DNA from: Piedraia hortae CBS 480.64
Lineage: Eukaryota
Length of the DNA stretch: 64,000 bases
Assembly: GCA_010093745.1 (NCBI GenBank)
Contig: MU005971.1
Location: 62,001 to 126,000 of the forward strand
Direction: 5' to 3'
Shown piece by piece: positions 5,821 through 52,226 of this stretch; within the stretch, counting starts at the first letter, position 1, and each line of letters starts with the position of its first letter. Made by a program: the position numbers and the translations under genes. The notes under the pieces are model-generated. The model was not told where the DNA came from. It saw only the letters and a list, made by a program, of their open reading frames with translations, and ran no database searches.

Positions 5821-5835
5821 GGATTAATGAGGGAG

Positions 5836-7398: not shown

Positions 7399-7399
7399 G

Positions 7400-27462: not shown

Positions 27463-28011
27463 TTTTTTTTTTCTTTGCTGTATGCTTCGCTCATGGGGTT
27501 AAAAGGCATGGCGGGAGTCAGATAGCTTTGGGGTTTTTCGAGTGCAAAGATTCTGTGTTGCCCCGACGGTTGGGGTAGACGATACAGTTAGATGTGTATA
27601 ACCGCTTGTCTGTCTGTATGCTATACTCTTTACGTGGCGGTAATTTGAGGTTCTTACAAAGGAAGGAAGGGTTTATGGCTGAGTATGGTGTGATTCGTAC
27701 ATGCAGTTGTGAAGAATCTTCCTCCACCATGACGTGTATAATGTAGCAGTATATACATAGCTATGGGCTCGTTATGTCGAATAGGTAGAACTTCCCCACT
27801 TTTTCCCCTATACAACACCTTTCAGCTCCTCCCAATCCATCCCTCCCTCCACCCTTCCATAAGAATAGAGCAATACAAAAACCCGTAGAATACAACTCCC
27901 ATTCACGAACAATAACTGAATGAATACAAATCTCCCCTAAAATGTATATGTGTACATAGGTGTCCACATCATACTCTCACTCCGCGGAGTTGATGATTGA
28001 CTTTTGAAGTA

Positions 28012-28900: not shown

Positions 28901-29708
28901 GGTTGTTTTTAGGTGGGAGGGTGTACTTTGGTTGTTGGGTTGGGCCGAGGTTGGAGTAATAGGGTGACTGATTGGGTTTAGCGGGGTTGTTATCGGTTGA
29001 ACAAAGGGTGAAAGACTTCTCATCGTCAGGATCTCAGTCCCACTCCCAGTCACGTGGCGTGGGCACGGCCCGTACAATACTACAACACCAAGACAGTTGC
29101 CCTTTTAGTCCTTACGCGTTGTTCTAGTCTTTTAGGCGATATAGAGTAGCGCACACCGCTTAGCTCCATCATTTGTGCCCTCCGGCCTCTCGGGCCTGCC
29201 ACTCATGTGTGTGATAACATACGTACGTACGTACAACCAAGATGTTTTCTTTTCTCCCTCGAACCTGCCTCATATCTTCCTGCCTTCGGCCCGTTACTAT
29301 CCCTCCAGACATTGTCATACGTCCCACCTGTCACAAATCTCACATGTGGTTTTGGGTGAATGCGATGTATGACGGTCGTTTGTTGGGCTCAAAGGGTTTG
29401 GATTGACGCAGTGGGGAGAGGTTTTATGGTATAGGAATTTTTGTGGGTTCACGACTCTGTTCATGAGTTTTGGGCCAGAGATTGTGGGCTTGCCGCTGCG
29501 ATCTGAAGATCATACGCGTCATGGTCCTCCAACACTCACAAAGCATATCTGCAATGGCACGAAACTGTCCTATCTCAACATCTATCAAGTTTCAAGTCCT
29601 CCATTAGCGAGGAGAGCGTTGCCCCAATCAACAATCTCAAGTATACCTTCCATCCTAACAACCACAAAGGAACCATCCTGCGCCCTCTTCTGGTCAGTAT
29701 TCCCAAAG

Positions 29709-30538
29709 ATGGCAGAGAGCCAAAGCGGCATCGTTACGAAACCACGTCCTTCGAAGACAGAAGGAATGTGGCAGCAGGTACCACAGTTCCAACGCACCGC
29801 CACGCCCGACTTCTTCCCCTAACACGAGGTCCGCTTCCGAGTCATGCATGAAGTAGCATTATCAGCCCCAATTACCCCCCCTACAGAGACGGAGGCAGTC
29901 CGAGTTATCTGCCGTACAGTAACGACTGCAGACGAAACCGGCCTTCTTTGGCGGAAATGGCAACCCAATTGACGTAACGGGCGCGCTTTGTCGATCCAAT
30001 CAGAGCTATCAATAACGGCTCTGCTATTAAATTCACCCTCGAAATTGCGAGTCGAAACTGCGGCACAGTCACTGTGCAGACACGATACCTAAGCGTGGCC
30101 TGCCTCTTCTGGTCAAGAGTTCAGAGTGAGGCTCATCCGCCAGCACGGTAGAGATAGACCTTCATTTCCCGCTGGGACAATCTCCGCGCGCCCGGGATGG
30201 TTTTGGGCGGTGGAGAGAGAACAATTTCCTTCCTTTTCTCTGTGCTGGATGTTACGGAGGGGATGCAAGTTCTCCTGACAACCGTTCATGGGTCTTTTGG
30301 AGGGTGGCTTCGCGCGGGAGGGGCGGTCATGCTCGTGCTGGGGAAAGCTTCGGCGGAGGCCGAGGAACTGGTGCGTTGGAGGAGCGATTACCTGTTGAGG
30401 GTGAGGGTGTATGTCAGAGGGATGGAGTTGAACGGTGCGATGTCGTGGAGATATGGAAGTTTCTTCGAGGAGTACGTCTGGGGGTCTTTCGGGAGGGTGA
30501 AGTCCGGTCTGGAGTTGGTTAAATGGCATTGCTCCTAG
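29709..30538 (+). pseudogene. Possible degenerate gene of unknown family
   Basis: ATG exon MAESQSG..WQQ followed by an intron-like GTACCA..CTAAC..AG, interrupted frames, then a protein-like 113-aa ORF. No family recognised. Confidence 0.25.
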
Positions 30539-36752: not shown

Positions 36753-37689
36753 TGTTGCTGTGAAGGGGGAGGGGTAGCTTTCAAGATCTTCAAGGCCAAA
36801 CGGTTGAAGAACCCCCACTTCTGGCCGAACGCGAAATGCCAGTCCATGACATCACCAGACGGCATGCACCCCCTTATCTCCCTTGCGTCCTTTGCCTCCT
36901 CTTGGTATAAAAGTGGCTAGTACGTTCATAGATCATCAAGCTGGACTTACGATCTCAACGACTCTGAACCATGTACACGTGACTTCGGGAATCAGAGACT
37001 CGGTCCAGCAACGTCACCTCGGTAAACGTCATACTGGACGGACCTGCATGCCGAGATTTAAGGTCATTGAACAGGCTAGCGTACAAGACAGAAGGCATTT
37101 GGTCTGCCACAAAGAGCGATGGGAAAAAAACTGAAACTTCAGTGATTGTGGTATAATCTAGCCTAGCAAAAATATAGCAATCACTTGCGGTTCATAATTC
37201 AGGCTTCCATTCGACGTAATTGCCAGCTTGTGGTCCATACTTTGAGTTTTCGGTTCATGTAATGGCGAGACTGTCAAATTATTTGGTAGGCAATGGTGTT
37301 TGAGGGCGCATGTATATGTGGCTATGTGGTTGAGCTGATGTCATGTGGTGAGGTGAAGTTCCGCACTTCACCTCACGCTAACCCAGTTCTAGTCGCATTC
37401 ACCGAGACTACGTTTCCGAACACGCACAGAGCATAAAACGGCACCGTGTCTCGTCCCAGGGAAAACTTCCTCCTATAGAAGAAAAAACCCTGAGAAGCAT
37501 CGACCTCTATCTAAGCTCGCAGTTGCGACCTGGCTGTATACTATATGAGAGGGTTTACCGTCTCACAGAGACCTGGCCACGTAACCTTTCTCTTTCCATG
37601 CGAACGCCTATTCACCGCTGCATGTTTTGCTACGGCGCCGACTCGTGGAAGAATCGTCGCCGCATGCCAAACCTTCCAGAAGGTCGTGT

Positions 37690-38222
37690 CCAGGTACCAG
37701 GTCATGCCGCCATCAAAGGCAATGACAGGGCCGACGTCCTCGCCAAGATGGGAGCATCAGCCACAGTCGACCCGTCAGCCCCGGTCAGGCTGCCAACGTT
37801 AGCTCATATAAAGAGATCAGCATGAGCCTGGAGCGCTGCACCGGCGAGAGGCTGGTGGGCTGAGAATATCCCCCAGCACTACCAGGAGCTGGCCATCGGC
37901 TTTCCTTCCAAGCCGCCAAAGGAACTGCGCCTCCGACGAAATGCCCCTGGACAACTCGTCGCGTGCAAAACGAAGCACGGTGACTTTGCCGAGTACCATC
38001 AAAGGTTCAATCACCGCGATGCAGAGCTCCACTGCTCTTGCGGGAGCTTCAAGACCCCAGTACACTTTTATTTCCGCCCGAAAGGCTCAACTGCCAGCAA
38101 CGTGCTGTGCAAGGGCTCGCCAAGCACCGCATTGAACCAGGTCCTAGGCACAGCGGCTGGGACTAAACTGTTTGCCAAGTATACGGCACAGTCCAGGTTC
38201 TACGAGGACATCTGCCCCAGGC
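37690..38222 (+). mobile_element. 3' remnant of Tad1-like LINE ORF2 (RNase H C-terminus and Cys/His finger)
   Basis: One frame with one internal TGA: VPGHAAIKGNDRADVLAK (RNase H) ... HGDFAEYHQRFNH.DAELHCSCG..KTPVHF ... FYEDICPR. Confidence 0.85.
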
Positions 38223-38430
38223 AGTCGACCAGAAACCAAGATGGCCCAAGTGGCCGGGGAATTGACGCGGAAGAGGTGCGGTCGGAGGGCACCGAAGGAG
38301 AGGACGGGGAGTGAAAGAGTCGGCCCCGCATCGTCTTATGCCCCATTAGGGTCCGGGCATATGCTCATTAGGGGACCGCGACCGCGACGGAGTATCAAAA
38401 CACGCTATCTTCGCGGTCACTATCGTCACG

Positions 38431-38760
38431 ATGAGCACCGACATGGGCGTCCCGATCACGGACGACATCAACGACGTCTCCGCCGAGGCCAGGATCACGA
38501 ACTGGATTATGGACACAAACAGACACATGCGCACTAACCTGTCCAAGGCGACGCTCGTGAAGAGGCTGATGTTCAGGGACGACATGCTAGTCGTAGTCTG
38601 CCCCGGGTGCATGATCGGGAAGATAGCCACAGACATGGACACGACCATGTTCAAGTTCATGGACGCGGCTGCGAGCGTGGAGACGGTTATGAGCAACGCC
38701 GTTGTTGTCAGTGCGTTCTGCGGTCCAAGGACGGACACCTGCGCGCCTGTGAACCTGCAG
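38431..38760 (+). pseudogene. Island ORFan fragment (5' half of ORF 38431..39069)
   Basis: Protein-like, GC3-rich frame that is also open upstream of the ATG. Beyond ~38760 the + frame becomes His/Arg/Asp-rich, as expected of an antisense shadow. Confidence 0.45.
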
Positions 38761-39060
38761 ACGCCAAATGTCCATCGACATGATGAGGACCTCACCTGCG
38801 TGCACAACCATCGACGCAATTGTGTCCAAGATAGTCATGAGCATGCTAGCGTTCATGTCCACGATGCTATGCACATAGATTATGTTCGACATCATTTCGC
38901 TATGCGGCCCCATGCACAGATCCCCGATTATGGTGATCGGCGAGAAGGTGGTCCCGATAACCTCCGACGACTGGTGGACGAACATGAGGTTGACGCACTT
39001 GTCCGTGCAATCGGCGAGGAAGAGAGTCGCCGAACTCGTCCATGGCGAGGCTTGAGATCG
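38760..39060 (-). pseudogene. Island ORFan fragment on opposite strand
   Basis: Globular-looking stretch TLFLADCTDKCVNLMFVHQSSEVIG...VVHAGEVLIMSMDIW within ORF 38587..39351. Confidence 0.4.
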
Positions 39061-39127
39061 TGTCCGTGATCGGCATCGTGAGCGCACGGCGCGCTGTGCG
39101 GTTGCCACAGTCGTTGCGCGGCCCGTC

Positions 39128-40465
39128 ATGGTGTGGGCGAGGAGTCGGGGCATCTCCATGATCCCGCCCAGGTTGAGGGACACGGTGGCAACCTCAAGCG
39201 TAACCGGACGCATGCACGAGATGAAGGCCATGTGCATGGATGCGACTATGAAGTTGGCCAAGCAGCTGCAGACGTTCGTGCACGGGGACAGGTTCGTGTC
39301 CACGATCAGGGGCCTGATGATGTCTGCATACGCGGGGCCAATCAAAGTCATGCGCGTAGGCCTCTACCCATACGAGCAGGACATCCTGCACTCAATCGCC
39401 TCAGCCCTCGCGTACTCCCCCACGATGTGCGGCGGCTCCACGCCCTCCGTCCAGGTCCTCGCTCAGGCCATGGCTGCGATGGTTCACAGGGTCAAGATCA
39501 AAGCCACGAACAAGAAGGGCATGTCGGATGCGTGCATCGTCCCGACCGAGGCCGAGTTGGTAGCGACCTTCAAGATGTTGCTCAGGTGCTCGTACATGTG
39601 CACGGCTGTGGGCGTGGCCTTCGTCAACTGCGTCCCTGTGCCTGTGCCCACGATGGCGAGGAAGATCGCGTGGGCGTCCCTGTTTTCGGAGTGGCTCGGA
39701 GACATGATCGTGATCTACAACAAGTTCGGGTATAAGATGACGATTGTGAGCATGGGTGCACTCGCGTCCGACAGTGTAAAGAGGACGTTCAGCTCGTACA
39801 GGGGCACGAATGAGATGGGGAACCACACCGCCGCTGTGAATCCGGCCGCAATCTCCTACGTGAATGTGCCCAAGCACGTGGCTAGGTTCCCGATCACGCT
39901 GACGATCACGAATATCGAGGAGGAGATCTTCACGATGATGGACTACCACCCGACGTTGGACATTAGCACAAGCTACAAGTGGAATGTGTACCCCAGGGAG
40001 ACTCTGTCCATGTCCATAAATGAGAGCAGGGTCGGGCCTCTAGCCAGGTCCTTGGCTAACCACCGAGTCGAGGGTCTAGTGCCTTTCTTCATCAACATGG
40101 CGAAGGACCTCTTCAACACCGGGAAGATGCTGAACAACACGGCGTCATCCTCGTCCATCGCGCCGCCCGGGGCCCTGCAGCCGATGCCGGAGGAGGCTAT
40201 CCACGACGATCCGAGCGCAACCGGGGGCACGAGTCTGTTCATGAATAAGAACGAGAGTACAACCAGGACCCAGGACGCGCACGGGCCTCCGGCGAACTCC
40301 ATGAACCAGATCTACGTTGGGCGCAACATCATGCTTGCGCAGTTGACCGACGCCACAGGCAAGACCAAGACCCAGCAGACGATTATGGTCGAGAATATGA
40401 TCGGGAAGTTGGACGAGATTTTTCGAGCTGTACAGGACCAGGGACAAGAGGGAGGAGAGGCTTGA
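39128..40465 (+). CDS. Uracil-DNA glycosylase-fold protein with C-terminal extension (likely frameshifted near 40430)
   Basis: VMRVGLYPY (cf. VVILGQDPY), ASALAY, TPSVQVL (PPSL), VGVAFVN (QGVLLLN), IVSMG (FMLWG), NPAA (HPSP), in family-1 UDG order. Confidence 0.7.
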   Translation: MVWARSRGISMIPPRLRDTVATSSVTGRMHEMKAMCMDATMKLAKQLQTFVHGDRFVSTIRGLMMSAYAGPIKVMRVGLYPYEQDILHSIASALAYSPTMCGGSTPSVQVLAQAMAAMVHRVKIKATNKKGMSDACIVPTEAELVATFKMLLRCSYMCTAVGVAFVNCVPVPVPTMARKIAWASLFSEWLGDMIVIYNKFGYKMTIVSMGALASDSVKRTFSSYRGTNEMGNHTAAVNPAAISYVNVPKHVARFPITLTITNIEEEIFTMMDYHPTLDISTSYKWNVYPRETLSMSINESRVGPLARSLANHRVEGLVPFFINMAKDLFNTGKMLNNTASSSSIAPPGALQPMPEEAIHDDPSATGGTSLFMNKNESTTRTQDAHGPPANSMNQIYVGRNIMLAQLTDATGKTKTQQTIMVENMIGKLDEIFRAVQDQGQEGGEA

Positions 40466-40502
40466 GGAGAAGGTCACGTCCATCATCGCCGCTGCTTCGT
40501 AC

Positions 40503-40670
40503 AGGTTGTGGACGCCTGTAGGTTGTCAGAGGTATAGCCGAGGCTACAGGGGGCACGTGGTCAACCCGCGAAGTCGCGGCGAGGAAGCGGAGAACACGGC
40601 TCGCGTCACCCGAACAGCGAGACGTGTTAGATATAGTCTCGCAGTCGGCGACGGCCCCGTTATCGGCGAA
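40503..40670 (+). pseudogene. Frameshifted fragment of a second allele of the island RNA polymerase gene
   Basis: RLWTPVGCQRYSRGYR/GTWSTREVAARKRRTRLASPEQRDVLDIVSQSATAPLS aligns with RLWTPVGCQKYSRDYKGTWLTHEVMTTKLRVRIASPEEQDILNKILSTAAPLS at ~45664-45828. Confidence 0.85.
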
Positions 40671-41310
40671 GGTCGAGGTGGTCATCGGTACCATTACTGA
40701 GACCACCAGTGAATTTACTCGCAAGAAGAATCCTGGCAACAGGTACTGGCGCGCGCCGGTATCGTTCAGGTCGAACAATTTCGAGAGCCTTGTCCTTAAG
40801 CAAGCTAACGTCGCTGTCCCCTACAATAGGGGTAACAATTATGGTACGGACTACATATATGTCAATATGCCCAAGTTTGTAGGCATGCATCTCAAGAAAG
40901 CGGCAGAGCGGCAAGGTCTCGTCGTCCAGATCGATGACGACCGGTTGCACAGCACCGACACCGATTGGTGGAAAACTCTGAACAATTGCACCGACAATTG
41001 CGGTATCATCACCCAGAGCGGTGATTTTGAGCCTCGTGACTTGAACAACATATTCCGTGTCACCAAGAAGGGTGTTGTAGTCAACGTAGACTACTGCGTG
41101 TCGCTTCGTCTTACCAAGACGAATGGCGAAGATCTCAGCAGCACTGACGTGTTTCGTGTCGTTCTGGACTGCAGTCGCGTCGCTCTCAAGAAAGTGAAGG
41201 TGGACGTAGAGGGACCGCCCATGGCTGCCAAGATCCCCACCACCCTCGCAGTCAAGGATGACGTCGCCACAGACGATCTGCTCGTCCAGCTTGAAGCCAT
41301 GGGTATCTAA
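40624..41310 (+). CDS. Island ORFan, beta-rich with acidic tail (possibly ssDNA-binding); native start replaced by the polymerase fragment
   Basis: Open 228-codon frame with strong C/G-ending codon bias and no ATG near its 5' end; function is a guess. Confidence 0.6.
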   Translation: MLDIVSQSATAPLSAKVEVVIGTITETTSEFTRKKNPGNRYWRAPVSFRSNNFESLVLKQANVAVPYNRGNNYGTDYIYVNMPKFVGMHLKKAAERQGLVVQIDDDRLHSTDTDWWKTLNNCTDNCGIITQSGDFEPRDLNNIFRVTKKGVVVNVDYCVSLRLTKTNGEDLSSTDVFRVVLDCSRVALKKVKVDVEGPPMAAKIPTTLAVKDDVATDDLLVQLEAMGI

Positions 41311-42096
41311 GCTACTATAGAGATATCCACTTTTTTAAAAATATTTTCGGCAGCAGATGCTGCGAAATCAACTAGAGTACCATTGTCTGAAACGGAACTT
41401 GCTGGCGAAACAACTCTCATGGATATAGGCATATCGATCGGAATAGTCGCCAAATACCTCGCAGATGGGTACCAAATAGTATCAACTAACAACGATAAGG
41501 TAGCTACCAACGATCGGATTATATGTGTTAACGTCGCAACATGGGAGTCATGTCCCGCGAAAACCGAACTCTGTAATACACTGGCAAAGAGGTTAGATAA
41601 TAAGAAAGGCAATCGTTTTCAGCAACTGAGCGCAGTGGCAATATGTGCCCTTTGCACTCACGGTTATCTTATCAATCATATTTCTGCACCTGGGCTTACT
41701 GCTAAGGATATGGATACTGTGTGGGGGTTTATGGAAACAACGGCTGTGAGTTCCAGCGAAGCGTTATCCAAGTGGCTAAGCGAAACGATAGCAGGTAGAT
41801 CGCTCGACGGATACCGTGCTAGTGCAGTCATTGAGAACAATAGTGGACACTGTTGTAGTGATAATTACCGGCCACGTAACACATTACGTAAACCAGTAGG
41901 GGCAACTGAGTTGGTTGATATTAATGCTGCAGCATCGGAGTATGGGACAGGCGACAGCATTACCAGTCTCGCTATGGCTGACACAGACATGCTATGTTCG
42001 TTGCGTTTTAACAACGGTGAACCGCCGCCCAGAGTAACTGGTCCAACATGGTGTACGCTACAGCACGGCCAACGACTTAACGAACAGCGGCCATGA
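41311..42096 (+). CDS. Island ORFan, apparently 5'-truncated
   Basis: Frame is open directly from the TAA at 41308-41310; AT-richer codons; 3' end overlaps the convergent TBP-like ORF. Confidence 0.5.
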   Translation, partial: ATIEISTFLKIFSAADAAKSTRVPLSETELAGETTLMDIGISIGIVAKYLADGYQIVSTNNDKVATNDRIICVNVATWESCPAKTELCNTLAKRLDNKKGNRFQQLSAVAICALCTHGYLINHISAPGLTAKDMDTVWGFMETTAVSSSEALSKWLSETIAGRSLDGYRASAVIENNSGHCCSDNYRPRNTLRKPVGATELVDINAAASEYGTGDSITSLAMADTDMLCSLRFNNGEPPPRVTGPTWCTLQHGQRLNEQRP

Positions 42097-42894
42097 TCGT
42101 GATGATGCTATAGACAGTATTGCTTGTCTAAAACCCGCTCCAATTACATGCAAGGCATCGGGTTTACCGGTGCATTTGAAGGACCCGTCTGCATATAATA
42201 ACATACATGTGTTCTTGTTCGCTTCTTCGCCGTAGCACGTCGCTGTTGGTCGAGCTGTTATCTTGTAAGCAGATGTCTTGACATCATTTACGAATGCAAT
42301 ATTATCAGGTGCATACGACCTAAGCATCGCCGCAGACTCCCGTGTAATCGTAGCCACATGTGACCCGTCATCGTCCGTACACAAGAATATAAAGCGCGAC
42401 TTCGATATGTTGACAAACGACCACTGACAGGGTACCTCCATATTATCTATCACATACGGGGTTAATCTACCCGATACTTGCACCTTACAATTATGCTTCG
42501 TGACTGTGCAAGCTATAGCTCCCAGTTGTTCACACATAAGATGTGTAGTCATCTCTGCGTCCCGATGCTTAAGTACAGACAAACTTGCCGTTGAACTGCT
42601 CAACTCTGGTTGTACGAAACAACACCTGTATACCGCAGAGGTACCTACGACCCACAGCCCGACAGTATGACATGCCCTGACATTAGCGTTGACAATCGAC
42701 ATACCGTTTGTAAGCCCAGTGACCAGTGGTGTTAGCAGGTCAATCGAGGCTTGTGGTAACTGTACTCCGTAAGTACAGGTGTATACGTCTTCAGAGTTAT
42801 CGTTTGTAGTATGTTTGTATCTCAACGACAATGATAGAAGCTGGCTTTGTGTCCTGTTAGATCTGTTCTTCGATGATCTGAAAAACGATGCCAT
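42058..42894 (-). CDS. Putative divergent TATA-binding-protein-fold protein
   Basis: TCMLLYADGSFKCTG followed by a helix resembles TBP TALIFSSGKMVCTG; weaker first repeat (SIVNANV ... CKVQVSG). Confidence 0.5.
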   Translation of the reverse strand: MASFFRSSKNRSNRTQSQLLSLSLRYKHTTNDNSEDVYTCTYGVQLPQASIDLLTPLVTGLTNGMSIVNANVRACHTVGLWVVGTSAVYRCCFVQPELSSSTASLSVLKHRDAEMTTHLMCEQLGAIACTVTKHNCKVQVSGRLTPYVIDNMEVPCQWSFVNISKSRFIFLCTDDDGSHVATITRESAAMLRSYAPDNIAFVNDVKTSAYKITARPTATCYGEEANKNTCMLLYADGSFKCTGKPDALHVIGAGFRQAILSIASSRSWPLFVKSLAVL

Positions 42895-42895
42895 A

Positions 42896-43540
42896 TCACC
42901 ACCAGCGTAGGCTGCGCAACGATGTTGCTATGCGACACTGTCGCGATGACCGACAATACCATCGACAGAGCGGACGTGGAACAGATAAATGATGTGCTGC
43001 GTTTGTCATACTGGATCTCATTCTACTGACGCTATGCTGGGCGGGGTTACCCATCGCACAGATATGAACCTTTTTACCAGCAATGATCACAGACACTCTT
43101 ACTATATCAACGAGGAATTGTTCCGTTGCCACGCGCTCCCTGTCAGATAGCGGGTCAATAAACGGTGTATACGCACATATATTCATTACCAACACACCCT
43201 GACGGAGGTACTTCCAGCTTTCTTGGAACCAGTCGCGAGCGGTGTTATAATCCATGTCGGTGTGATTATGAATATCTCTGGCAATATAATGGACGGATGG
43301 TGTCACGTTAGTAAGCAAAGGATCATAAGACATGGCTGATGCGACGTACGGGAGGATACGATTACCATAGGGCCGCTCGCCCAATATGATATGCCTGATT
43401 GGCATCGATCGCGGTATTCCCAAAATATACCGGCATAGCGGCCCAGTTATATGATGAGTAGTGTTACGTGTAACGCCTATCTCATCGAGGTAAGCATAGC
43501 ATCTTTCGTAACATAGTTTAACTACTCGTTCGTCACACAT
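42896..43540 (-). CDS. Uracil-DNA glycosylase-like protein (C-terminus possibly replaced)
   Basis: HIILGERPY, ASAMSY, TPSVHYI, QGVLVMN, ICAMGNPAQ match the family-1 UDG motif order; HPSP motif not seen. Confidence 0.8.
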   Translation of the reverse strand: MCDERVVKLCYERCYAYLDEIGVTRNTTHHITGPLCRYILGIPRSMPIRHIILGERPYGNRILPYVASAMSYDPLLTNVTPSVHYIARDIHNHTDMDYNTARDWFQESWKYLRQGVLVMNICAYTPFIDPLSDRERVATEQFLVDIVRVSVIIAGKKVHICAMGNPAQHSVSRMRSSMTNAAHHLSVPRPLCRWYCRSSRQCRIATSLRSLRWW

Positions 43541-43581
43541 GGTGTTTTTAGCAGAGAGCTGCCTGTTTTAACATAGAGCTG

Positions 43582-44490
43582 CTAATCATTGAATAACCTC
43601 ACTACTAACTCTCCACATTCGACGTTAATGGTATCGTTTACATCATGACAGTTGACGCACACACGCCGATGTACAACATGCATAACAGAACAAAAGTAAC
43701 ATTTCTTATACTTGCTAATGGCATTCATGATTTCAGACACTAGCGTGTTAATAGACATGCTTACAGTATCAATATCAATCGATGTTCCTATTCTGGGAGG
43801 ACCGAAGTTAACTGCGACCAAGTTGTCCGTACGTGGGCGCTGGTACATCAATGGCGCTAATCGCGTTCCTTCAGAACCGATCAATGTGGGTACACCGTAT
43901 ATGACGCCGGTACCATTTACCCACATATTGGTACGTTTGTATTGTAATGAGACCGCCAATTCCATACACCTAATGGACCCTATCCACGTTAGCGTGCAAT
44001 CTTCGCTTATCAGTCCCTTTACAACGTCGATTAGCGTACCTCTGTTTACCGTGAATGGACCATTTATACTGCTCACACGTACTAAGTACTCCTTACCATC
44101 ATCGCCAATGGGTACTACTACACATGTAATTCCGGTCATTGAGTCTCTGATATTATCGATTGATTCTACTATATCAACAGCATAGTTTGAATATTCGATA
44201 AAAATTATGACATTGGTTATACCGCGGTACGACGACATCAATAACATCATGGTAGCAAGTACCGATAAATGTTCTTTTTTACAAGAATTAAACACCTTGG
44301 GCGACAAGGAGTACATGTCAGCAGTGTTCACATATGGTACCGTGATACCATCCACGAGAGCATCGATGGCAGCGAATTGATCATTGCGTATGTTGACATG
44401 AGTGCAATTGTCAACTGTGTCTGCAATCCGCTTCAATGATGTAGTGCAGTTAAATGCACATGCGCTGTTCCCGCTGCACCTACCGATCAT
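43582..44490 (-). CDS. Island ORFan with Cys clusters
   Basis: 302-aa intronless ORF; C-terminal CYFC..CVNC possible Zn site; start overlaps the upstream stop (ATGA). Confidence 0.7.
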   Translation of the reverse strand: MIGRCSGNSACAFNCTTSLKRIADTVDNCTHVNIRNDQFAAIDALVDGITVPYVNTADMYSLSPKVFNSCKKEHLSVLATMMLLMSSYRGITNVIIFIEYSNYAVDIVESIDNIRDSMTGITCVVVPIGDDGKEYLVRVSSINGPFTVNRGTLIDVVKGLISEDCTLTWIGSIRCMELAVSLQYKRTNMWVNGTGVIYGVPTLIGSEGTRLAPLMYQRPRTDNLVAVNFGPPRIGTSIDIDTVSMSINTLVSEIMNAISKYKKCYFCSVMHVVHRRVCVNCHDVNDTINVECGELVVRLFND

Positions 44491-45314
44491 TTGATGGAAT
44501 GAACGATATATTTCATGTGGTACCTAGACGTATGTTTCCCGCGCGCAGATTGTAAAGGTTCCAGCACTACCGATACAGTGAAGGTAGCAGTTGCCACTGC
44601 ATCACAGTTTAATCTTTCAGCGAACACCGCGGCTGTAGCGTCACGCCTCCAACCGCGCTCCATAATGTCGCAACATACCAGGTGTCGCGAGAGAGAGATT
44701 CTGACACTGCTATATGACCATGTGTCCTGATATGTAGGCATTACTCTGACTCCAATGCTATGGAGCGAGTCCATTAAAGCGTCTGTCACAATTATTGGTA
44801 CAAACAGTACCGCTGTATATGCCTCTGTATCAACAGTGGTGAAGAACGTGTGATCATACCTGTTTGTCTTAGGTCTAACAAGAACACAGTTAGGTACATC
44901 GAATACGGGAGACTTAACAGCAGGTTGGCATGTACATACAAGCATAACACCTCGAACGTACGGGTCAATGCATTCCGTTAGATAATCATAGTACTTACCT
45001 AGCACATCTAGGCTAAGCGGGATCAGCTCACTGGTTACATCTTCAGTGACGCGCAATCTCAATGGACGTTTGGCCTTCGCGATATCATAACCGTTGTCAG
45101 CCTGCAGTTGCATAAACTTCATATCAAACCATTCGTCTCCATTATTCGGTGGTGATTCGGTCCCTATTAGTGTCCAACCGCGGGTGTACAACCCACTGTT
45201 TATCATATCGTTAACATCATCATCGTATTCGGAAATCGTAGCTTGATCAGCGAAACCTACTGGAGTTGCAGCTGGCCTCGAGGTGCCCGGCGCACCGATG
45301 AGCATACGTGCCAT
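44487..45314 (-). CDS. Island ORFan
   Basis: 275-aa ATG-initiated intronless ORF, divergent from the polymerase gene. Confidence 0.7.
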   Translation of the reverse strand: MARMLIGAPGTSRPAATPVGFADQATISEYDDDVNDMINSGLYTRGWTLIGTESPPNNGDEWFDMKFMQLQADNGYDIAKAKRPLRLRVTEDVTSELIPLSLDVLGKYYDYLTECIDPYVRGVMLVCTCQPAVKSPVFDVPNCVLVRPKTNRYDHTFFTTVDTEAYTAVLFVPIIVTDALMDSLHSIGVRVMPTYQDTWSYSSVRISLSRHLVCCDIMERGWRRDATAAVFAERLNCDAVATATFTVSVVLEPLQSARGKHTSRYHMKYIVHSIK

Positions 45315-45355
45315 GTGGATACAGCAACGCCGTTGCCTACCCTACGTGAATCAGT

Positions 45356-48300
45356 ATGTCGCTATTTAATCTCCGTCAACATGAAGCCTACGCCAATGGC
45401 GTGACATTGAGCAATCATATGACACTACGCAACGCTTGCATAGATTACCGCGACGCGGGAGGTACATCTTGGGTTGACAATGCTGCCCCTGAAATGAGCG
45501 CTGCCGCCTCAGATGATCAAGTCCCCTGTATGAATAAATTCACGAATATAGTTGGACATGCAAGCGACAGCGAGATCATTTGCTTTGGTATACAGGAGTG
45601 TACTAGTGCAATTGGCGTGCTAACTGAAGTTATAGGATCAATGCAGCGCGCCGTCGAGCTGGGCAGATTGTGGACGCCTGTAGGTTGCCAGAAGTACAGT
45701 CGCGACTATAAAGGAACCTGGTTAACACACGAGGTAATGACGACAAAGTTGAGGGTACGGATCGCATCGCCGGAAGAGCAGGACATATTGAACAAGATCT
45801 TGTCAACGGCAGCACCATTGTCAGTAAGCACCGTACACGCTGCAATGGAGGCAAATCATCATACTAACATTTGCGAGTATGGTAATATATTTATGTTTCC
45901 ACACGGTGCAGCACCATCCGCCGGGTTAATAGGATCTTTACATGACAATGAATGCGTAGATATGTGTCCCAACGACAATAAGGATGTTCCAAACAGTGCT
46001 GCCAGATCATTCCTAAGGGAATACAGGGGATTTATATGTGCAGGACACACATCGCATTCGACAGAAGCAGGAAGAGTGCGCCGAGTCACATGCGACGTGC
46101 GCGTCAGATTATTGTCTCGTCGTACCATCGACGACCTACGTGGTATCGAACTCGTGTGGCGCAACATCTATCGTGGCACCGATACGGATTGGACTGTGTT
46201 TTGTATGGGATATCATTCCCGCATAACGCGCGCTGAGATGATATGCTTAGAACGGTTCCGAAACACCATATCAGCCAGACGTCCTTGTAGCTTCAGCGTG
46301 CATACGTACCCTGATCTGAAGTTAGTGATAGTTTCAGTAAGCTCAGGGACGCTAATGAAAAAATGTAGCGTAGGTGGATGGGCGGACAACATTGAAGTTC
46401 ACGTGTCTAGACCTATTGACGATTCACCCCGGCCAGAAATCCATAGCACTGGATATGACCAGCTGAGGGCAAACTTCTCGGCGTTTTTTAATCTTGTACC
46501 ATTCATATCAAGTGACCGAGCACCTAGACCGCTCATCTCGTCTGTACAGACTCCTCAGGCAGTCTGTATTCCATGGTGCCCCGGTACAGCGTCGGTGTCA
46601 CCGTGTTACTCGTTTAACCCGATAGTCACCACACCACTGTACACCAATGTTCTCGCCGATATAAATGATGGCAACGCGAATGTGAGTAGTTACCTTCCCG
46701 GTGAAAATGTAGTAGTGCTGTATCTAAATATGCCGGGCAATTATGAGGATGCCATGATAGTCTCACGCAGATACATTGACAACGGTGGGTTTAGCACTGT
46801 CTCCATATGTTCCTACCTTGTGCAACAAAGCGAATATGTGCCGCCTGTAGGTAGCCGTGTGTGTTCAGTGCTATGTACATGGTGGAAATCACCATGTGAA
46901 CCTGGATGCCTCCATACAACGAGGTATATCGAATCGACTAAGACGTACTGCGTTGGGCACGCACCAACCGGCGTGATCGTCAGCGTCACTAAACAACCCA
47001 CGGGGGACATATCGGTTAGGGTGAAAAGTCACCAGCAATTGCAGCAAGGCGACAAGCTTTCCACTGGTCATGGACAGAAAGGCGTTGCTGTCCTGTGGAA
47101 TCATGAGGACATGCCTGTGGCTCATAGTGCGAAGCATGGTACAATAATACCAGATGTTGTGGTTGCGATGTCGTCACTTGTGACTCGACAAACCAATGGA
47201 CAACTATACGAAGCTGCGTGTGCGTTAACACATATTTCAATGGGATCAAGGCTACCGGTGGCGGTTGACGCAGATGCTGTGTTTGATGTTAACGACGAAT
47301 TCACTGTCACTGATGCTACTACAGGTGAGCCGTACATGACGGCTGTAGTCGGCGATGATGGTGAGATATACATGCAAGAGACGCTGGCCACGTTGGGCAT
47401 TGTGCGTATGTTCAACCAGACACAGATGACCCGCGAGCGGCATCATGTGTCCCACATCTCACACGGCGCTGCGCCATCCGCTGGATTGATAGGCTCCCTG
47501 CACGACAACGAGTGCATAGACATGTGTCCGGGTGACAACAAGGACGTCCCAGACCTCGCGGCTAGGTCCTTTCTGAAGGGTTACAGGGGATTCATATGCG
47601 CGGGTCACACATCGCATTCCACAGAGGCCGGAAGGGTTCGTAGAGTAACGTGCGACGTACGTGTCAGGTTGCTGTCGCAACACACGATCGACGACCTGCT
47701 GGACGTCACAGTTGCGCTGCGCAATATTTCCCGTGGCACTGATACAGACTGGACAGTGTTCTGCATGGGGTACCACGCGCGCATAACACGCGCTGAGATA
47801 ACGTGCCTGGAACGGCTCCGTGACAGTGCGTCAATCAGACGTCCGTGCACCTTCAGTGTGCACATATATCCCGACTCCAAGCTGGTCGTTGTATCGGTGA
47901 GCTCAGGGACGTTGTTAAAGAAGTGCAGCGACGGCAGGTGGGCAGACGACGTTGAAGTCCACGTGTCCGAGCCGGTTGGTGGTTCGTCCCGGCCTAGAGT
48001 GTCGGGCTCGGGGCGCGATCAGCTGAGGGCGAATTTTTCAGCTTTCTTCAGCCTCGTGCCTTTCGTATCGAGTGGCAGGGCCCCTAGGCCACTCATATCC
48101 TCAGTGCAGACACCTCAAGCTGTTTGCATCCCGTGGTGCCCCGGTACCGCGTCAGTGTCGCCGTGTTACTCGTTCGACCCGGTGGTCACGACGCAGCTGT
48201 ACAGCGAAGTGCTCGCTGACATACGTAACGATAGGGCGAATGCGAGCAGCTACCTTCCAGATGAAAACGTAGTGACGTTGTACCTAAATCTGCCAGGCAA

Positions 48301-48445
48301 CTACGACGACGCTATGATAGTTTCGCGCAGGTACGTTGACAATGGTGGGTTTAGCACAGTTTCCGTGTGCTCGTACCTGGTGCAGCAAAATGAGTACGTA
48401 CCACGAGGAGCTGACGGAGGTCAACCCATCCATAGACGAAGATGA
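45356..48445 (+). CDS. Highly divergent DNA-directed RNA polymerase second-largest subunit (Rpb2/beta-like); chimeric, native C-terminus missing
   Basis: GFICAGHTSHSTEAGRVRRV ([20 protein letters not shown]), LVPFISSDRAPRPLISSVQTPQAV, GENVVV..GNYEDAMIVS..IDNGGF, QGDKLSTGHGQKGV..EDMP, IPDVVV..TRQTNGQLYE. Confidence 0.9.
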   Translation: MSLFNLRQHEAYANGVTLSNHMTLRNACIDYRDAGGTSWVDNAAPEMSAAASDDQVPCMNKFTNIVGHASDSEIICFGIQECTSAIGVLTEVIGSMQRAVELGRLWTPVGCQKYSRDYKGTWLTHEVMTTKLRVRIASPEEQDILNKILSTAAPLSVSTVHAAMEANHHTNICEYGNIFMFPHGAAPSAGLIGSLHDNECVDMCPNDNKDVPNSAARSFLREYRGFICAGHTSHSTEAGRVRRVTCDVRVRLLSRRTIDDLRGIELVWRNIYRGTDTDWTVFCMGYHSRITRAEMICLERFRNTISARRPCSFSVHTYPDLKLVIVSVSSGTLMKKCSVGGWADNIEVHVSRPIDDSPRPEIHSTGYDQLRANFSAFFNLVPFISSDRAPRPLISSVQTPQAVCIPWCPGTASVSPCYSFNPIVTTPLYTNVLADINDGNANVSSYLPGENVVVLYLNMPGNYEDAMIVSRRYIDNGGFSTVSICSYLVQQSEYVPPVGSRVCSVLCTWWKSPCEPGCLHTTRYIESTKTYCVGHAPTGVIVSVTKQPTGDISVRVKSHQQLQQGDKLSTGHGQKGVAVLWNHEDMPVAHSAKHGTIIPDVVVAMSSLVTRQTNGQLYEAACALTHISMGSRLPVAVDADAVFDVNDEFTVTDATTGEPYMTAVVGDDGEIYMQETLATLGIVRMFNQTQMTRERHHVSHISHGAAPSAGLIGSLHDNECIDMCPGDNKDVPDLAARSFLKGYRGFICAGHTSHSTEAGRVRRVTCDVRVRLLSQHTIDDLLDVTVALRNISRGTDTDWTVFCMGYHARITRAEITCLERLRDSASIRRPCTFSVHIYPDSKLVVVSVSSGTLLKKCSDGRWADDVEVHVSEPVGGSSRPRVSGSGRDQLRANFSAFFSLVPFVSSGRAPRPLISSVQTPQAVCIPWCPGTASVSPCYSFDPVVTTQLYSEVLADIRNDRANASSYLPDENVVTLYLNLPGNYDDAMIVSRRYVDNGGFSTVSVCSYLVQQNEYVPRGADGGQPIHRRR
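47460..48403 (+). repeat. Diverged, indel-free copy of 45900-46843 (offset 1560 nt)
   Basis: Same offset at both ends; in the first 60 nt there are 14 substitutions but only one amino-acid change. Confidence 0.95.
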
Positions 48446-48758
48446 AAAGCAAACAAACAAACAATGCTTTGCTACGGATGATCTTCAGGCTGATTCACCG
48501 CCGCCGGAATTTGCTACCGCCCGTTCCTCGAAGCTTGGCCTCCATTGAGAGAGAAGGTACTGAGGTTGGATGGAGAGCAGTTCCAAGGCGATATGGAGGA
48601 TTGCACACCCGCTGATTTACCAGATTGCAAGAAGCGCACGGTTCAATGGGATGCTCTCCCTCTTCACCAGGAAACACACTTTTCTTCTTCCCCACCAGAA
48701 TTCATGTGCTAAAACCTCATTTCATACCCATCATTACTGATACAATTACTTCTACCGC

Positions 48759-51700
48759 CTACTGTCCCTTTCCCCTCTTTGCAATGTAATACGTGAGCAG
48801 TCCCAATCTCCCTTCGTCCGTCCCCTTAAACGCATCCCAAAACTCATTCTTCTCCGCAAAGAGCTCAAACAATTCACTCGCAAGCTCCACATCTGCCTTT
48901 CGAACTTCAGCATCAGCGTGACAAAGATTCGCAGCTGCAGTGCTTGTTAGGCGCGTGCGTACGCTCGTCTCGAGCTCTACAGAGGAAGAGCGGGCTTTCG
49001 TCGTCTCGACTAGACGGCGGAGGGTGTAAAGCGCCATTGCAACTGCGCCGTCGCCCTGATCCTGGCCGAGAAAATCCAGGGTTGCGTCGATGCAGACCTC
49101 TGGCTGCGACGTCCTTACAATTTCGTCTGCCGTCTTCTCGACGTCGGTGGCAAAGTAGCCGTTGGATATGGTGGTGCTGTTCTGGCACGCAAAAACTGTG
49201 ACAAGCGCCTTGGCCTGCCATGCTGTGGCGTGCTTGCGTTGCCGCGTGAGCAGCGTGCGCATGAGGATCATGGCTTGAGTCTTGAGTGAGGTGGCCTTGG
49301 GCGGTGTTGGGATGATTGTGTCAAATGTCTGGAGGTAGTCTAGCAGGACGGTCATGAGCTCGTCGTACCTTTTTCCGCCGTCCCAAATGTCCTGTTTGCT
49401 CTTGGCGAGATCCTGCACACGTCGGAAGCCGTGCACGTCTAGAGACTTGTTGCGGATGCGCTCGATGCCGGAGCTGAGGAGCTTCTTGCTACGGTGCAGG
49501 TCTGCGCGTTCTTGTGGAGATGGCTCAACGCCGTTGAGAGGCTGCGGACTGGTACCTGCGCTCTCGCTGGAGTCGCCGTTGTTAATGGGACTGGCTACCC
49601 TCGCGTTCTCGTTTACTTTGATTTCTCCGAGCACCTTACGGTCACCGTTCATCGGTGCTGTACCTGCACCTGTGACAAAAGGATCTTCGTAGATGGGGAT
49701 TTCTTCGGCCTGTGTTGTAACAGCGGATTGAGGCTCGCTGGCTACTTCAGGCATACCGTGCCGTTGCATCGGCGAGTTGCGGTCGAGCTTGTCCCTCGCC
49801 TGGTCGAACATGGCCTTCAACGGAGTCCGAGTAGCAAGAGGAGATTGTGTACGTGGCTGGTGGCTGGTCATGGTGGGCATTACCATGGTGAAGCCATCAT
49901 CGTCTGATGGTGCATGGAGGCTGCTGTCCGCGGACATGGCCTGTTGCAGACCGGGACGCTTGATGCCGAGCCCGTTCTTGCTGCTTGGGATAACCATTGT
50001 AAGATCATCCTCGTTAATCATCGATGCGTCGTCGCTGCGTGGCGCATTGCTGCCCTTGCTAGTCGGCCTGGAGGTCTGAACGTGATCGGTGACTGACCGG
50101 CTAAGGCCTGGCATAGGGCTGCGTCTGCGAGGACTGCCTCGAGGGCTCGCCGTGTGTCGGGGACTGGCCCCCTGTCGGACACCGGTTGATCCCTTGGTGG
50201 CACTCAAACCGGAGGCGGAGGTCTTGGATGGCCTCGGTGAGTCCCCTCCCGGGCTGCCGTTTGCCGGAGTGGCGGGCCTCAGCATGCGTCTGGAGGCATA
50301 AGGGTCAGCAGTCTGCGGACGTGCAATCTCCGGTCTTCTAGGCCGTCTTGCCGGGCCAGACATGAGTGCACTACGCTTGCTGGTGGACGAAGCACGGTTG
50401 TCAGGAGCACCGGCCGAGACATTTGACGTGACTCTATCAGGATGGAGGTGTGAAGGGGCACGAGGAGCGTGGTTGACAGTGGAATAGGACCGAGGCTTTG
50501 CAGGCGACAGCTGGGCCATGGCCGAGTTTGGCCTATCAGGCACTCGTCCATGCGCCTTTGCCTTCCTCTGCTCAGCAATCATGTCCCGCATCGCCTGTCT
50601 GCTGGTAGCAGACCGTAAGCCGGTGGCTCCCGTGGTCGGTAGAGACTTGTGGAGGCCAGCATTGGGATTTCCGGGGTGTTTCTGTAGTGCCGTTTTGGCT
50701 GGGCTGTCGAGGGAGTTTATGAGCTTCTCGGCACGTTCTGGCCAGCTCTTTGCGAACACCCAGTAGGTTGCCCTCATGCCTTCTTTAACAGCCGGCTTTG
50801 CGTCTTCCAGGCCCTTTTTGATCGTCTTTTCGGCCAGTTCTAAACCGCCAGAGATCTCAAAGTGGTGCTGATAGCCAGCCTGGCGGTTCAAGATGGTCTT
50901 GAGCCACTCGGGCACGCATTGGCGGATTTGGACGTTTTTGTCTTGGGAAGCATACCAGATATGCTGCATCATGTTACGGTTGTAGGAGCAATGCTGAAAA
51001 AGGGCGTCACACGTCGTTCGGCCGTTCTGGGCAGCAATCGGTTTCGTGTTGGAGCTCATCTTGATGAAGTTTTGTAGCAAAATTTCGACTGTGGGGTCCA
51101 GCGCCGGGCCCAGCGTCCGTGCCAGTTCCTGCACAAGCTGCGTGCCATTGGTAGACATGGTTGTCCGCAACGAGTTGGCTACCTTTAATATGCCCTCCAG
51201 GAGGCTCTTGATGCCGGCCATGAAGGCTGGATGGTACTGGCTGGGTGCGTTTCCCTTCAATAGCCGCCGCAACATAACGACTGACTTATCCCGAGGAATC
51301 CAGTTCTCTTCATCCTCTTTGCCCTCGAAGAATGGCAGCATATCGCGGAAGATGTCGGTCAGGTCTCGCTCCGAGTAGACGGTGACAGGATCCATCTGGA
51401 CAGGTTCAGGAGTCGGTGGATGGGCCGCTTCGCTGTTTAGGCTGTGAGAAAGTTGATTGCCAGGGGGGAGCAGATTGCCGCCCTCGGCTGCCTCTTGCTC
51501 GCCATCGCCCCTCGTCCTCGGCCTGGCGGGAGGTGCGGCTGTTTCGCTTCCAATCTGAGCGAGTATCTGCGACTGGATAGAGTGGCGAACCGAATGCGCC
51601 TTCAACTGGCGCTTGAGATCCAGCTTTGCGCGATCTGGCGCGTCAGAGAAAAGTTCGATGAGGGCTGTCTTAGCCGTCTCCCGCACGTTGCCCTCGTGGT

Positions 51701-52226
51701 CCTCGAGGCGCGCCACAATAGCCGATACATACGCCTTGAACGGCATCGCACGATCTTTGTGCATGCGCGCAACCCACAGGATGCCGGCTTCCTTTGCGCG
51801 CGCGTGAGAACCGCCGATGGCATCATCGCGGATCAACTGCTCGACGTCGGCAGTCAAGAATGGGTATAAGTCGCTTAGCGCGTGCGATGCGCCGGCCCTC
51901 ATCGGCTCCTTGAGGTCGGCCAACTTCTCGAGCAGTACAGGTAGCAGGCGCGGCGCCAGGTGGACGATCGCGCGGCCGTGTGGGTCCTGTATGCGCAGCC
52001 GCTTCACCAGCGGCGAAAGTGTTGAACAGGCCAACAATGCCAGCGTAGACGACGAGTGCTGTGCAACAGCCAATTTGAGGCATTCAAAGATGGTCGACTG
52101 AACACTCTCCGGCACTTCGCCGTGGCGGATCTCGGCCTTCAATGCGTTCATGGCGTCCATTTTGTGCTGCGACTGCGCTGCCGGCCGCTTCAGCATTGCC
52201 AGCAGTTCCGCTGCTTGAGCCTCCAT
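48759..52226 (-). CDS. STU1: CLASP-family microtubule-associated protein Stu1
   Basis: TOG/HEAT repeats, FEGKEDEENWIPRDKSV, SLRTTMSTNG, RPRRPEIARPQTADPY, C-terminal LLTYYI. Confidence 0.93.
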   Translation of the reverse strand: MEAQAAELLAMLKRPAAQSQHKMDAMNALKAEIRHGEVPESVQSTIFECLKLAVAQHSSSTLALLACSTLSPLVKRLRIQDPHGRAIVHLAPRLLPVLLEKLADLKEPMRAGASHALSDLYPFLTADVEQLIRDDAIGGSHARAKEAGILWVARMHKDRAMPFKAYVSAIVARLEDHEGNVRETAKTALIELFSDAPDRAKLDLKRQLKAHSVRHSIQSQILAQIGSETAAPPARPRTRGDGEQEAAEGGNLLPPGNQLSHSLNSEAAHPPTPEPVQMDPVTVYSERDLTDIFRDMLPFFEGKEDEENWIPRDKSVVMLRRLLKGNAPSQYHPAFMAGIKSLLEGILKVANSLRTTMSTNGTQLVQELARTLGPALDPTVEILLQNFIKMSSNTKPIAAQNGRTTCDALFQHCSYNRNMMQHIWYASQDKNVQIRQCVPEWLKTILNRQAGYQHHFEISGGLELAEKTIKKGLEDAKPAVKEGMRATYWVFAKSWPERAEKLINSLDSPAKTALQKHPGNPNAGLHKSLPTTGATGLRSATSRQAMRDMIAEQRKAKAHGRVPDRPNSAMAQLSPAKPRSYSTVNHAPRAPSHLHPDRVTSNVSAGAPDNRASSTSKRSALMSGPARRPRRPEIARPQTADPYASRRMLRPATPANGSPGGDSPRPSKTSASGLSATKGSTGVRQGASPRHTASPRGSPRRRSPMPGLSRSVTDHVQTSRPTSKGSNAPRSDDASMINEDDLTMVIPSSKNGLGIKRPGLQQAMSADSSLHAPSDDDGFTMVMPTMTSHQPRTQSPLATRTPLKAMFDQARDKLDRNSPMQRHGMPEVASEPQSAVTTQAEEIPIYEDPFVTGAGTAPMNGDRKVLGEIKVNENARVASPINNGDSSESAGTSPQPLNGVEPSPQERADLHRSKKLLSSGIERIRNKSLDVHGFRRVQDLAKSKQDIWDGGKRYDELMTVLLDYLQTFDTIIPTPPKATSLKTQAMILMRTLLTRQRKHATAWQAKALVTVFACQNSTTISNGYFATDVEKTADEIVRTSQPEVCIDATLDFLGQDQGDGAVAMALYTLRRLVETTKARSSSVELETSVRTRLTSTAAANLCHADAEVRKADVELASELFELFAEKNEFWDAFKGTDEGRLGLLTYYIAKRGKGQ

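Follow-up and report, generated by a model that had tools for sequence, protein, structure and literature searches.

The DNA analysed here, called the window throughout, is a stretch of 64,000 nucleotides (nt) from Piedraia hortae CBS 480.64 (contig MU005971.1 of assembly GCA_010093745.1, positions 62,001 to 126,000, forward strand). It is fungal nuclear DNA, and it contains a single plus-strand open reading frame (ORF) of 1029 codons, 45356-48445, which holds a direct repeat. The segments 45900-46843 and 47460-48403 are identical at 684 of 944 nt (72.5%) at a fixed offset of 1560 nt with no indels, and both lie stop-free in the frame of the ORF. An earlier note, made from the letters alone, had read this arrangement as an in-frame fusion of two diverged polymerase alleles and not as a simple tandem duplication. 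Our analysis places the ORF at the right-hand end of a mosaic of fragments from DNA elements (39128-48403), and the whole object is most likely a recent nested fossil of endogenous elements, not a functional fusion.

The repeat and the polymerase gene that holds it

As a control for the 1560-nt repeat, identity was calculated at 46 alternative offsets, where it averaged 24.9% and never exceeded 27.9%. A repeat search of the window recovered the 1560-nt offset, and beyond both repeat ends the identity drops at once to background. The longest run identical between the two copies measures 14 nt, and nothing points to a recent gene conversion. What the earlier note had read from the letters was borne out: the constant offset without indels or stops, the sequence CACACGG at the start of both copies, the mostly synonymous changes (14 differing sites in the first 60 nt, with one residue change, V to I) and the preference of copy 2 for codons ending in C or G (G+C at third codon positions, GC3, is 0.657 in copy 2 against 0.467 in copy 1). 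The ORF is made up as follows.

45356..47459, plus strand: lineage-A RNA polymerase beta/Rpb2-like gene, residues 1-701 of about 815, carrying the GDKLSTGHGQKG motif
45900..46843, plus strand: copy 1 of the repeat, lineage A, residues 183-496
47460..48403, plus strand: copy 2, also called B2, lineage-B RNA polymerase residues 183-496, in frame after residue 701 of A
48404..48445, plus strand: read-through tail of 13 codons and a stop, in sequence without a match to the element

The right edge of the element-derived DNA is at 48403/48404.

That the gene encodes a polymerase was correct as noted earlier, but its kind can now be given more precisely. The ORF matches PF00562 (RNA_pol_Rpb2_6; E 2.3e-21, 76.8 bits against a cut-off of 23.4), and GDKLSTGHGQKG contains the hallmark of hybrid-binding domain 6, GDK...G(Q/N)KG; a match to Rpb2_3 stays below threshold (E 0.0017, 18.9 bits against a cut-off of 21). 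The enzyme concerned is a multisubunit RNA polymerase and no DNA polymerase; the predicted product is its second-largest (beta/Rpb2-like) subunit. It shares the Rpb2_6 match and the GDK...GHGQKG motif with the known second-largest subunits (bacterial beta, archaeal Rpo2, eukaryotic Rpb2/RPC2 and poxvirus Rpo132). Unlike these, which have 1100-1350 amino acids (aa), the family has only about 800, and the window copy in addition lacks the C-terminal domain. When the family profile was compared with the solved chains in the PDB, beta/Rpb2 chains matched at profile positions 530-782 only (E down to 1e-16), a stretch that includes the part lost from the window copy, and the N-terminal 530 positions gave no sequence match to any solved chain.

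For residues 1-701, 66 relatives were listed, 64 of them 758-835 aa long and two of about 600 aa; identity reaches 64% at best. They lie mostly on contigs of about 20-42 kb, and the three fungal relatives with an NCBI name (from Hypoxylon sp., Aspergillus hancockii and A. insuetus) are all annotated as 'hypothetical'. Since the longest of those listed has 835 aa, they leave no room for an extra copy of 315 residues, and no internal repeat was found in the 13 relatives that were aligned residue by residue. In all 13, the sequence ...RERHHxSHxxPG is followed by about 115 conserved residues with a GEME motif and a cysteine cluster. The window ORF is without these C-terminal residues: domain 7 (clamp/anchor, cysteine cluster) is absent, the gene being cut after residue 701, and copy 2 sits in its place and restarts at residue 183, so that the alignment agrees with the earlier proposal that copy 2 replaces the C-terminus of copy 1. 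PF04560 is precomputed for 5 of the 66 relatives, and its match in L001, a locus from a 27-kb metagenome contig, is weak (E 0.0048, below the cut-off). A scan of IMG/VR with the polymerase alignment returned 18 pattern matches and no relatives.

Divergence of the two copies before their joining

The differences between the copies fall on codon positions 1, 2 and 3 in the numbers 47, 37 and 177 (315 sites each), which puts 177 of 261 (68%) at third positions, and the encoded segments are 79.4% identical. Counts after Nei and Gojobori gave pN 0.118 and pS 0.776, the latter saturated. In a pairwise maximum-likelihood fit of a codon model (F3x4), the ratio of nonsynonymous to synonymous change, omega, was 0.068; the log likelihood (lnL) was lower by 2.3 at 0.04 and by 1.7 at 0.10, and twice the lnL difference from omega = 1 was 246. 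The earlier note had expected this ratio to be far below 1. Of the 35 columns conserved in at least 95% of the 66 relatives, all keep the family residue in copy 1 and all but one in copy 2; the single relatives deviate at 0 to 4 of them. When the 315-residue segment was placed in a maximum-likelihood tree with the 66 relatives, the copies came out as sisters with 100/100 support, on branches of similar length (0.16 and 0.19), their nearest relatives in this segment being 66-67% identical.

The two copies thus represent two lineages, A and B, that were under purifying selection before they were joined. This is what the earlier note had proposed when it spoke of separate functional genes that diverged under constraint and were joined later, and the low omega, the saturated synonymous sites, the retained conserved columns and the sister relationship all agree with it. 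The copies are pieces of two lineages of a DNA virus-like element, however, and not alleles of the host. As the note had also held, such a history implies a population of related elements.

Transitions outnumber transversions between the copies by 194 to 67. At 59 sites copy 1 has T where copy 2 has C, and the base that follows is G at 24 of these, A at 13, T at 13 and C at 9. The C-to-T sites are therefore not directed at CpA, and no stop was created, so that repeat-induced point mutation (RIP), whose C-to-T spectrum the earlier note had named as an observation that would refute its reading, is not supported.

How long the frame could have survived without selection was estimated in a simulation of substitutions only. 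The 3.1-kb ORF kept an open frame at P>=0.05 until about 0.03 substitutions per site had accumulated and not beyond; copy 2 taken by itself reached about 0.12. Given the short time for which the ORF could have stayed open, there has been little neutral change since capture, and nearly all of the divergence between copy 1 and copy 2 is therefore older than capture.

The mosaic at 39128-48403, its junctions and its transcripts

The ORF is part of a larger mosaic of element fragments, which has at least five breakpoints and whose junctions lack long homology. To the left of the pieces already given, it comprises the following.

39128..40496, plus strand: fragment of an element protein without a Pfam match, residues about 17-480 of about 700-725, GC3 0.83, abutting B1
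40497..40668, plus strand: B1, a lineage-B RNA polymerase piece, residues about 103-157, with a 1-nt insertion (frameshift) in a G run near 40552
40669..47459, no single strand: block A, AT-richer, 6.8 kb, in the gene order of L001 at about 2925-12124, its ORFs all open
40672..41310, plus strand: C-terminal ~210 residues of a gene of the element's 291-aa family, the first ~80 residues lost at the left edge of block A
42896..43540, minus strand: N-terminal 214 residues of an element protein of ~557 aa, 65.6% identical in amino acids to L001 8087-7521, the rest lost in a 2.3-kb deletion
43582..44490, minus strand: full-length element gene, 302 aa, as is its counterpart in L001; no Pfam match
44487..45314, minus strand: full-length element gene, 275 aa, with a counterpart of 279 aa in L001; no Pfam match

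In a tblastx comparison, window positions 40672-47459 are colinear with L001 at about 2925-12124, except that nothing between window positions 42790 and 42980 corresponds to L001 5226-7521, a stretch of about 2.3 kb. At the left edge, residues 80-122 of the 291-aa protein of L001 match 40672-40800 at 74%, and this fragment reads in frame with the tail of B1. A further ORF of block A is 219-237 long compared with 216 aa for its counterpart in L001. When 11 related loci were compared with the whole window by tblastx, only noise (<=28 bits) appeared outside 40687-48403; the fragments farther left emerged from other comparisons.

B1 is 71.8% identical over 117 nt to its counterpart in block A (45664-45779), and its G+C content is 0.62 against 0.49 there. 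B1 and B2 lie directly to the left and right of block A, on the same (plus) strand and in the same order, with about 75 nt of B missing between them. On the simplest reading, B1 would show copy 2 to be the right half of an older B fragment that was split by the block carrying copy 1. Two frameshifts in about 1.5 kb of B-side DNA, as opposed to none seen in about 6.6 kb of block A ORFs, fit a greater age of B. One of the two is in the leftmost, GC-rich fragment near 40420-40430, where the tblastn match passes from frame 1 (aa 17-461) to frame 2 (aa 455-477).

Contigs of two sequencing runs from the Logan collection were placed on 39500-49500. One contig of the DNA run X1, 15,673 nt long, covers 39637-49500 with 0 differences at a depth of 11.8, with neighbours at 10.5 and 11.7. 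In run X2, from another sample and study, a contig of 1576 nt (46509-48084) crosses position 47460 with 0 differences and another (48116-49286) crosses 48403. The A-B junction at 47460, for which the earlier note had wished to see spanning reads, is thus crossed by contigs of two samples and is real, and the X1 depth together with the X2 contigs over 47460 and 48403 makes the element DNA continuous with the host chromosome at host copy number.

The seam itself reads ...CAC ATC TCA | CAC GGC GCT, where L001 has CAT ATA TCT CCT GGT (H I S P G) and the start of copy 1 reads TTT CCA CAC GGT. If A ended in TCA CCN GGN and B read CCA CAC GGC, about 3 nt (CAC) would have been common to both at 47457-47459. 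So short an overlap would fit end joining whether or not microhomology took part; the joining through microhomology that the earlier note had thought possible is accordingly allowed, at no more than about 3 nt judged from the homologues, but it is not required.

We read X2 as RNA from its depth range (0-1876) and from GT..AG joints in its contigs, although no run that contains the sequence is recorded as RNA. Its depth over the region is 73-109, with little or no cover over 42.5-44.8 kb. One contig, of depth 73, contains three joints.

45820..45877, plus strand: intron of 58 nt, GT..AG, with TACTAAC inside
45588..45635, plus strand: intron of 48 nt, GT..AG
45196..45260, minus orientation: intron of 65 nt, GT..AG

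The two plus-strand introns excise conserved coding sequence and shift the frame, which leads to a stop at codon 155, and removal of the third breaks the 275-aa ORF. Such contigs cannot show strand, the proportions of isoforms or the absence of an unspliced form. Since the C-terminal clamp/zinc region is missing and splicing is out of frame, the chimeric ORF most likely makes no polymerase, and the open frame is probably without functional consequence.

Several observations on the same contigs stand apart. An unspliced X2 contig at 40149-42219 takes in the last part of the GC-rich fragment, all of B1 and two genes of block A at a depth of 655, a high apparent expression for a fossil, and it ends in 26 loose letters that are absent from the window. 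The X2 contig at 48116-49286 has the depth of the host gene CLASP (422) and runs from its 3' end over the right edge of the element DNA and about 290 nt into copy 2, so that transcripts of CLASP may now terminate within DNA that stems from the element. In X1 the assembly graph forks at 39577-39670, where a 90-nt contig has a depth of 26.8, about twice that of its flanks; the left alternative is diverged (7 differences in 107 nt), the right one is a 6.4-kb contig with sequence absent from the window, and X2 has the same loose end. A second genomic copy of this gene probably exists elsewhere. Two loose-end consensus strings from the contigs, of the alternative path at 39670 and of the end at 42219, were not found in the window.

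Origin of the mosaic and its source elements

A metagenome scan returned 11 related loci, and the contigs of five of them (L001-L004 and L008) are about 23-32 kb long (23.9-32.3 kb). The contigs of the family come from fungal or fungus-rich data. The loci encode a family B DNA polymerase (in L002, PF00136 with E 3e-35 and no other family reported), beta-like (838 aa) and Rpb1-like (655 aa; Rpb1_2) RNA polymerase subunits as separate genes, a P-loop helicase of superfamily 3 (SF3) type (DUF5906, 26.4 bits against a cut-off of 27.6), a protein of about 712 aa that has a zinc ribbon of TFIIS/LEF5 type and matches a methyltransferase weakly, a NADAR-RNase H protein and a weakly kinase-like protein. 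Membership of the Nucleocytoviricota would call for a double jelly-roll capsid protein and an A32-type packaging ATPase beside PolB, a D5-like helicase and RNA polymerase subunits; of such genes the loci offer PolB, the Rpb1- and Rpb2-like subunits and the sub-threshold P-loop of the helicase, with a TFIIS ribbon in addition. Among the 38 element ORFs scanned with Pfam, on contigs that are not whole elements, none fell into a family typical of host cellular genes and neither a capsid nor a packaging family was recognised, so that the elements may be viruses or plasmids. The position of the relatives on contigs of 20-42 kb and the gene order common with L001 speak for an origin from an autonomous element and not from host genes.

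The element contigs also hold two paralogous families with a uracil-DNA glycosylase (UDG) fold. The family of the fragment at 39128-40496 has 20 homologues of 325-748 aa, many on contigs of 15-34 kb, with named examples from Oleoguttula, Saxophila, Circinaria, Fusarium and Zymoseptoria, and hhalign relates its N-terminal domain to the UDG-fold family A4, that of the ~557-aa protein, with a probability of 95%. The N-terminal domain of the ~557-aa protein adopts a UDG-like fold in a predicted model of moderate confidence (mean pLDDT 67.7), and with this model UDG was the only fold among the Foldseek matches listed (best E 7.8e-4, TM on target 0.40-0.56). The profile of family A4 found nothing significant among the PDB sequences (best E 0.27), the fold search alone having shown the UDG-like domain. 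A 793-aa 'hypothetical protein' on a 307-kb contig of Piedraia hortae (P0114) is 69% identical to 31% of the UDG-fold protein, and it is probably another endogenised fragment.

Captured elements are known from yeasts as NUPAVs, which Frank and Wolfe reportedly described in 2009 as mosaics at chromosomal breaks. Endogenous elements resembling nucleocytoplasmic large DNA viruses (NCLDV), the 'fundsalphavirus' elements, have been found in early-diverging fungi (Gong, Zhang and Han 2020, PMC7017919), where the available text gives 14 host species from phyla other than Ascomycota and never mentions Ascomycota itself. The mosaic is like both kinds of capture in that foreign genes lie between host genes in a truncated, rearranged and partly frameshifted form, with several fragments at one site and without long homology. 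It differs from the 'fundsalphavirus' elements in its host, which is of the filamentous-ascomycete type, and in its donors, which are elements of about 23-32 kb and not giant viruses; it differs from both in that two diverged lineages are nested one in another and the fragments are almost undecayed.

A further comparison is with the virus-like elements (VLEs) of the yeast cytoplasm, the killer and helper plasmids of the pGKL2 type. The available texts describe them as compact genomes of 9-13 kb (PMC13348850, PMC6211774, PMC4431711) with more than 75% A+T (PMC4431711), and yeast VLEs with their nuclear relics are treated in 10.1101/2024.10.25.620242 and PMC13348850. Like these, the family described here would consist of small fungal DNA elements with a DNA polymerase of their own, a non-canonical RNA polymerase and capping-type functions, which leave fragments in the nucleus. 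Unlike them, it has neither the extreme A+T content nor the size of 9-13 kb, with a G+C content of 39-47% (0.39-0.47 in L001) and contigs of 23-32 kb. The beta-like and Rpb1-like genes are separate, again unlike pGKL2-type VLEs. The match of the DNA polymerase to PF00136 would be a further difference, as a separate Pfam family covers the protein-primed type, which marks these VLEs together with a terminal protein and inverted terminal repeats.

Double-stranded DNA viruses or VLEs with their own RNA polymerase have otherwise been reported, as far as the available sources go, from budding yeasts and early-diverging fungi. Our literature searches gave yeast VLEs, giant viruses of zoosporic fungi and NCLDV-like fossils, none of which match this family, and we found no account of such an element family in Pezizomycotina; the supplements of PMC7017919 and PMC12297863 were outside the search and might list ascomycete matches, so that absence from the literature searched is not proof that no description exists.

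We consider it likely that 39128-48403 is a nested patchwork endogenised from DNA virus-like elements of filamentous ascomycetes, about 23-32 kb in size, of which at least two diverged lineages, A and B, are represented. An older GC-rich patch with a fragment of the lineage-B beta-like gene (residues about 103-496) would already have been resident in the chromosome when illegitimate end joining placed the 6.8-kb, AT-richer fragment of lineage A into it and about 75 nt of B were lost. The A fragment would begin within one gene and stop at residue 701 of the beta-like gene of A, and its right-hand seam would have joined residue 701 of A to residue 183 of B in frame by accident, which would have created the 1029-codon ORF with its 1560-nt repeat. 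The A and B copies evolved apart as working genes in two element lineages and changed little after capture, and the chimeric ORF is transcribed in the host nucleus and spliced out of frame at chance splice sites. The data show two lineages that were constrained before they met, a real junction, the lack of the C-terminus, the B1-A-B2 layout and transcription with splicing that breaks the frame, while the sequence of steps, the end-joining mechanism and the lack of polymerase function are inferred.

Several points weigh against this reconstruction. The 1029-codon frame and the open state of all ORFs of block A could also mean selection for a host function, and both seams of block A are in frame, for which chance gives about 1/9, a value that is not decisive. 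The order 'B first, then A' would rest on the arrangement of the pieces and on the two-versus-zero count of frameshifts. X1 is probably the source of the assembly, which leaves X2 as the sole independent support for the junction, and the RNA status of X2 is, apart from its depth range and joints, a guess. An unspliced mRNA may exist, as the contigs give one isoform only. The block A gene at 40708-41310 has a GC3 of 0.65 compared with 0.42-0.48 in the other genes of the block, and it is closer to L001 (68-74% at the amino-acid level) than its neighbour gene is (47%). It possibly comes from a third source lineage, in which case the mosaic would have more than two sources.

Of the alternatives, one keeps both lineages and moves the A-B junction out of the chromosome: co-infecting lineages would have recombined illegitimately into a defective genome or concatemer that was captured in one event. 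Two diverged lineages joined without homology would fit such a history, but the unequal frameshifts of the B-side DNA and block A point to different ages in the chromosome, and the near contiguity of B1 and B2, with 75 nt missing, is the signature of insertion into resident sequence, so that we think it unlikely. That the chimeric ORF is instead a domesticated host gene, whose fusion protein or spliced products serve the fungus, for example against an incoming element polymerase, could be argued from its 1029 open codons, the family-conserved residues kept in both halves and the presence of the region in X2 at depths of 73-109. The assembled spliced form stops at codon 155, however, the conserved C-terminal domain is missing, truncation or deletion has affected the element genes around it, the 66 relatives listed include no orthologue of the chimera, and recent capture alone could account for the open frame; this reading appears quite improbable.

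A tandem duplication within one gene of an element or of the host, with the copies diverging in place, would account for a direct repeat at a fixed offset in one frame, but it is very improbable and close to refuted. Copies within one gene share its mutation bias, yet GC3 is 0.47 in one and 0.66 in the other; the relatives listed (<=835 aa) are too short and the 13 aligned have no repeat; a third B-type piece lies 6.8 kb upstream; and an omega of 0.068 with saturated silent sites would need long constraint on both copies in a protein without its C-terminus. An assembly chimera, or divergence made by RIP, is the least probable reading: X1 is probably the assembly's own read set, and copy 2 has RIP-like composite indices, with a TpA/ApT ratio of 1.05 and a substrate index of 0.93, but the X2 contig from a second sample and study crosses the junction without a difference, and the bases after the T/C sites, the predominance of third-position differences and the lack of stops speak against RIP.

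If the mosaic is a nested patchwork as proposed, the fusion is an ordinary product of foreign-DNA capture, of a kind already known. Its value lies in two lineages of one apparently undescribed family that were kept almost undecayed, about 28% apart in nucleotides with saturated silent sites and with no relative found above 67%. The preservation of two diverged lineages means that at least two circulated in the ancestry of the host, and the family points to elements of 20-40 kb in Pezizomycotina-type fungi with their own genes for replication and transcription. The nested B1-A-B2 arrangement raises the question whether such fragments have preferred sites of accumulation. A bolder idea, which we hold to be decidedly unlikely, is that the locus is a transcribed 'trap' that logs successive element invasions, with new fragments landing in older ones and the cluster transcribed from both strands. 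If this were true, antisense or small RNAs or truncated polymerase pieces from it could act against incoming elements, and the locus would be a fungal counterpart of the clusters of endogenous viral elements (EVEs) and PIWI-interacting RNAs (piRNAs) in insects.

The host genes of the window include CLASP (48759-52226, minus strand), Sec7/BIG2, RhoGAP-LIM, a KH protein, Vps52, DASH Ask1, Rrn7, a short-chain dehydrogenase/reductase (SDR) and a mitochondrial carrier. Fungal genes flank the element DNA on both sides, the CLASP gene ending at 48759 on the minus strand. To the left of the mosaic, 38350-39127 has no match to Pfam or to an element locus, which makes 39128 a provisional left limit, and an ORF at 37382-37822 has a weak RNase H motif at its C-terminus (E 0.036, below the cut-off) and no BLAST match to the RNase H genes of the elements; with this sub-threshold motif only, its reading as the remnant of a non-LTR (long terminal repeat) retrotransposon is unproven. 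Farther left, an AT-rich island at 28000-30000 (G+C 0.354) has long ORFs in overlapping frames on both strands (27977-29077), which suggests low-complexity or repeat-derived sequence. At the other end of the window, an ORF at 59002-59799 matches an aspartyl protease and a reverse transcriptase (RVT_1) and is a fragment of an LTR retrotransposon.

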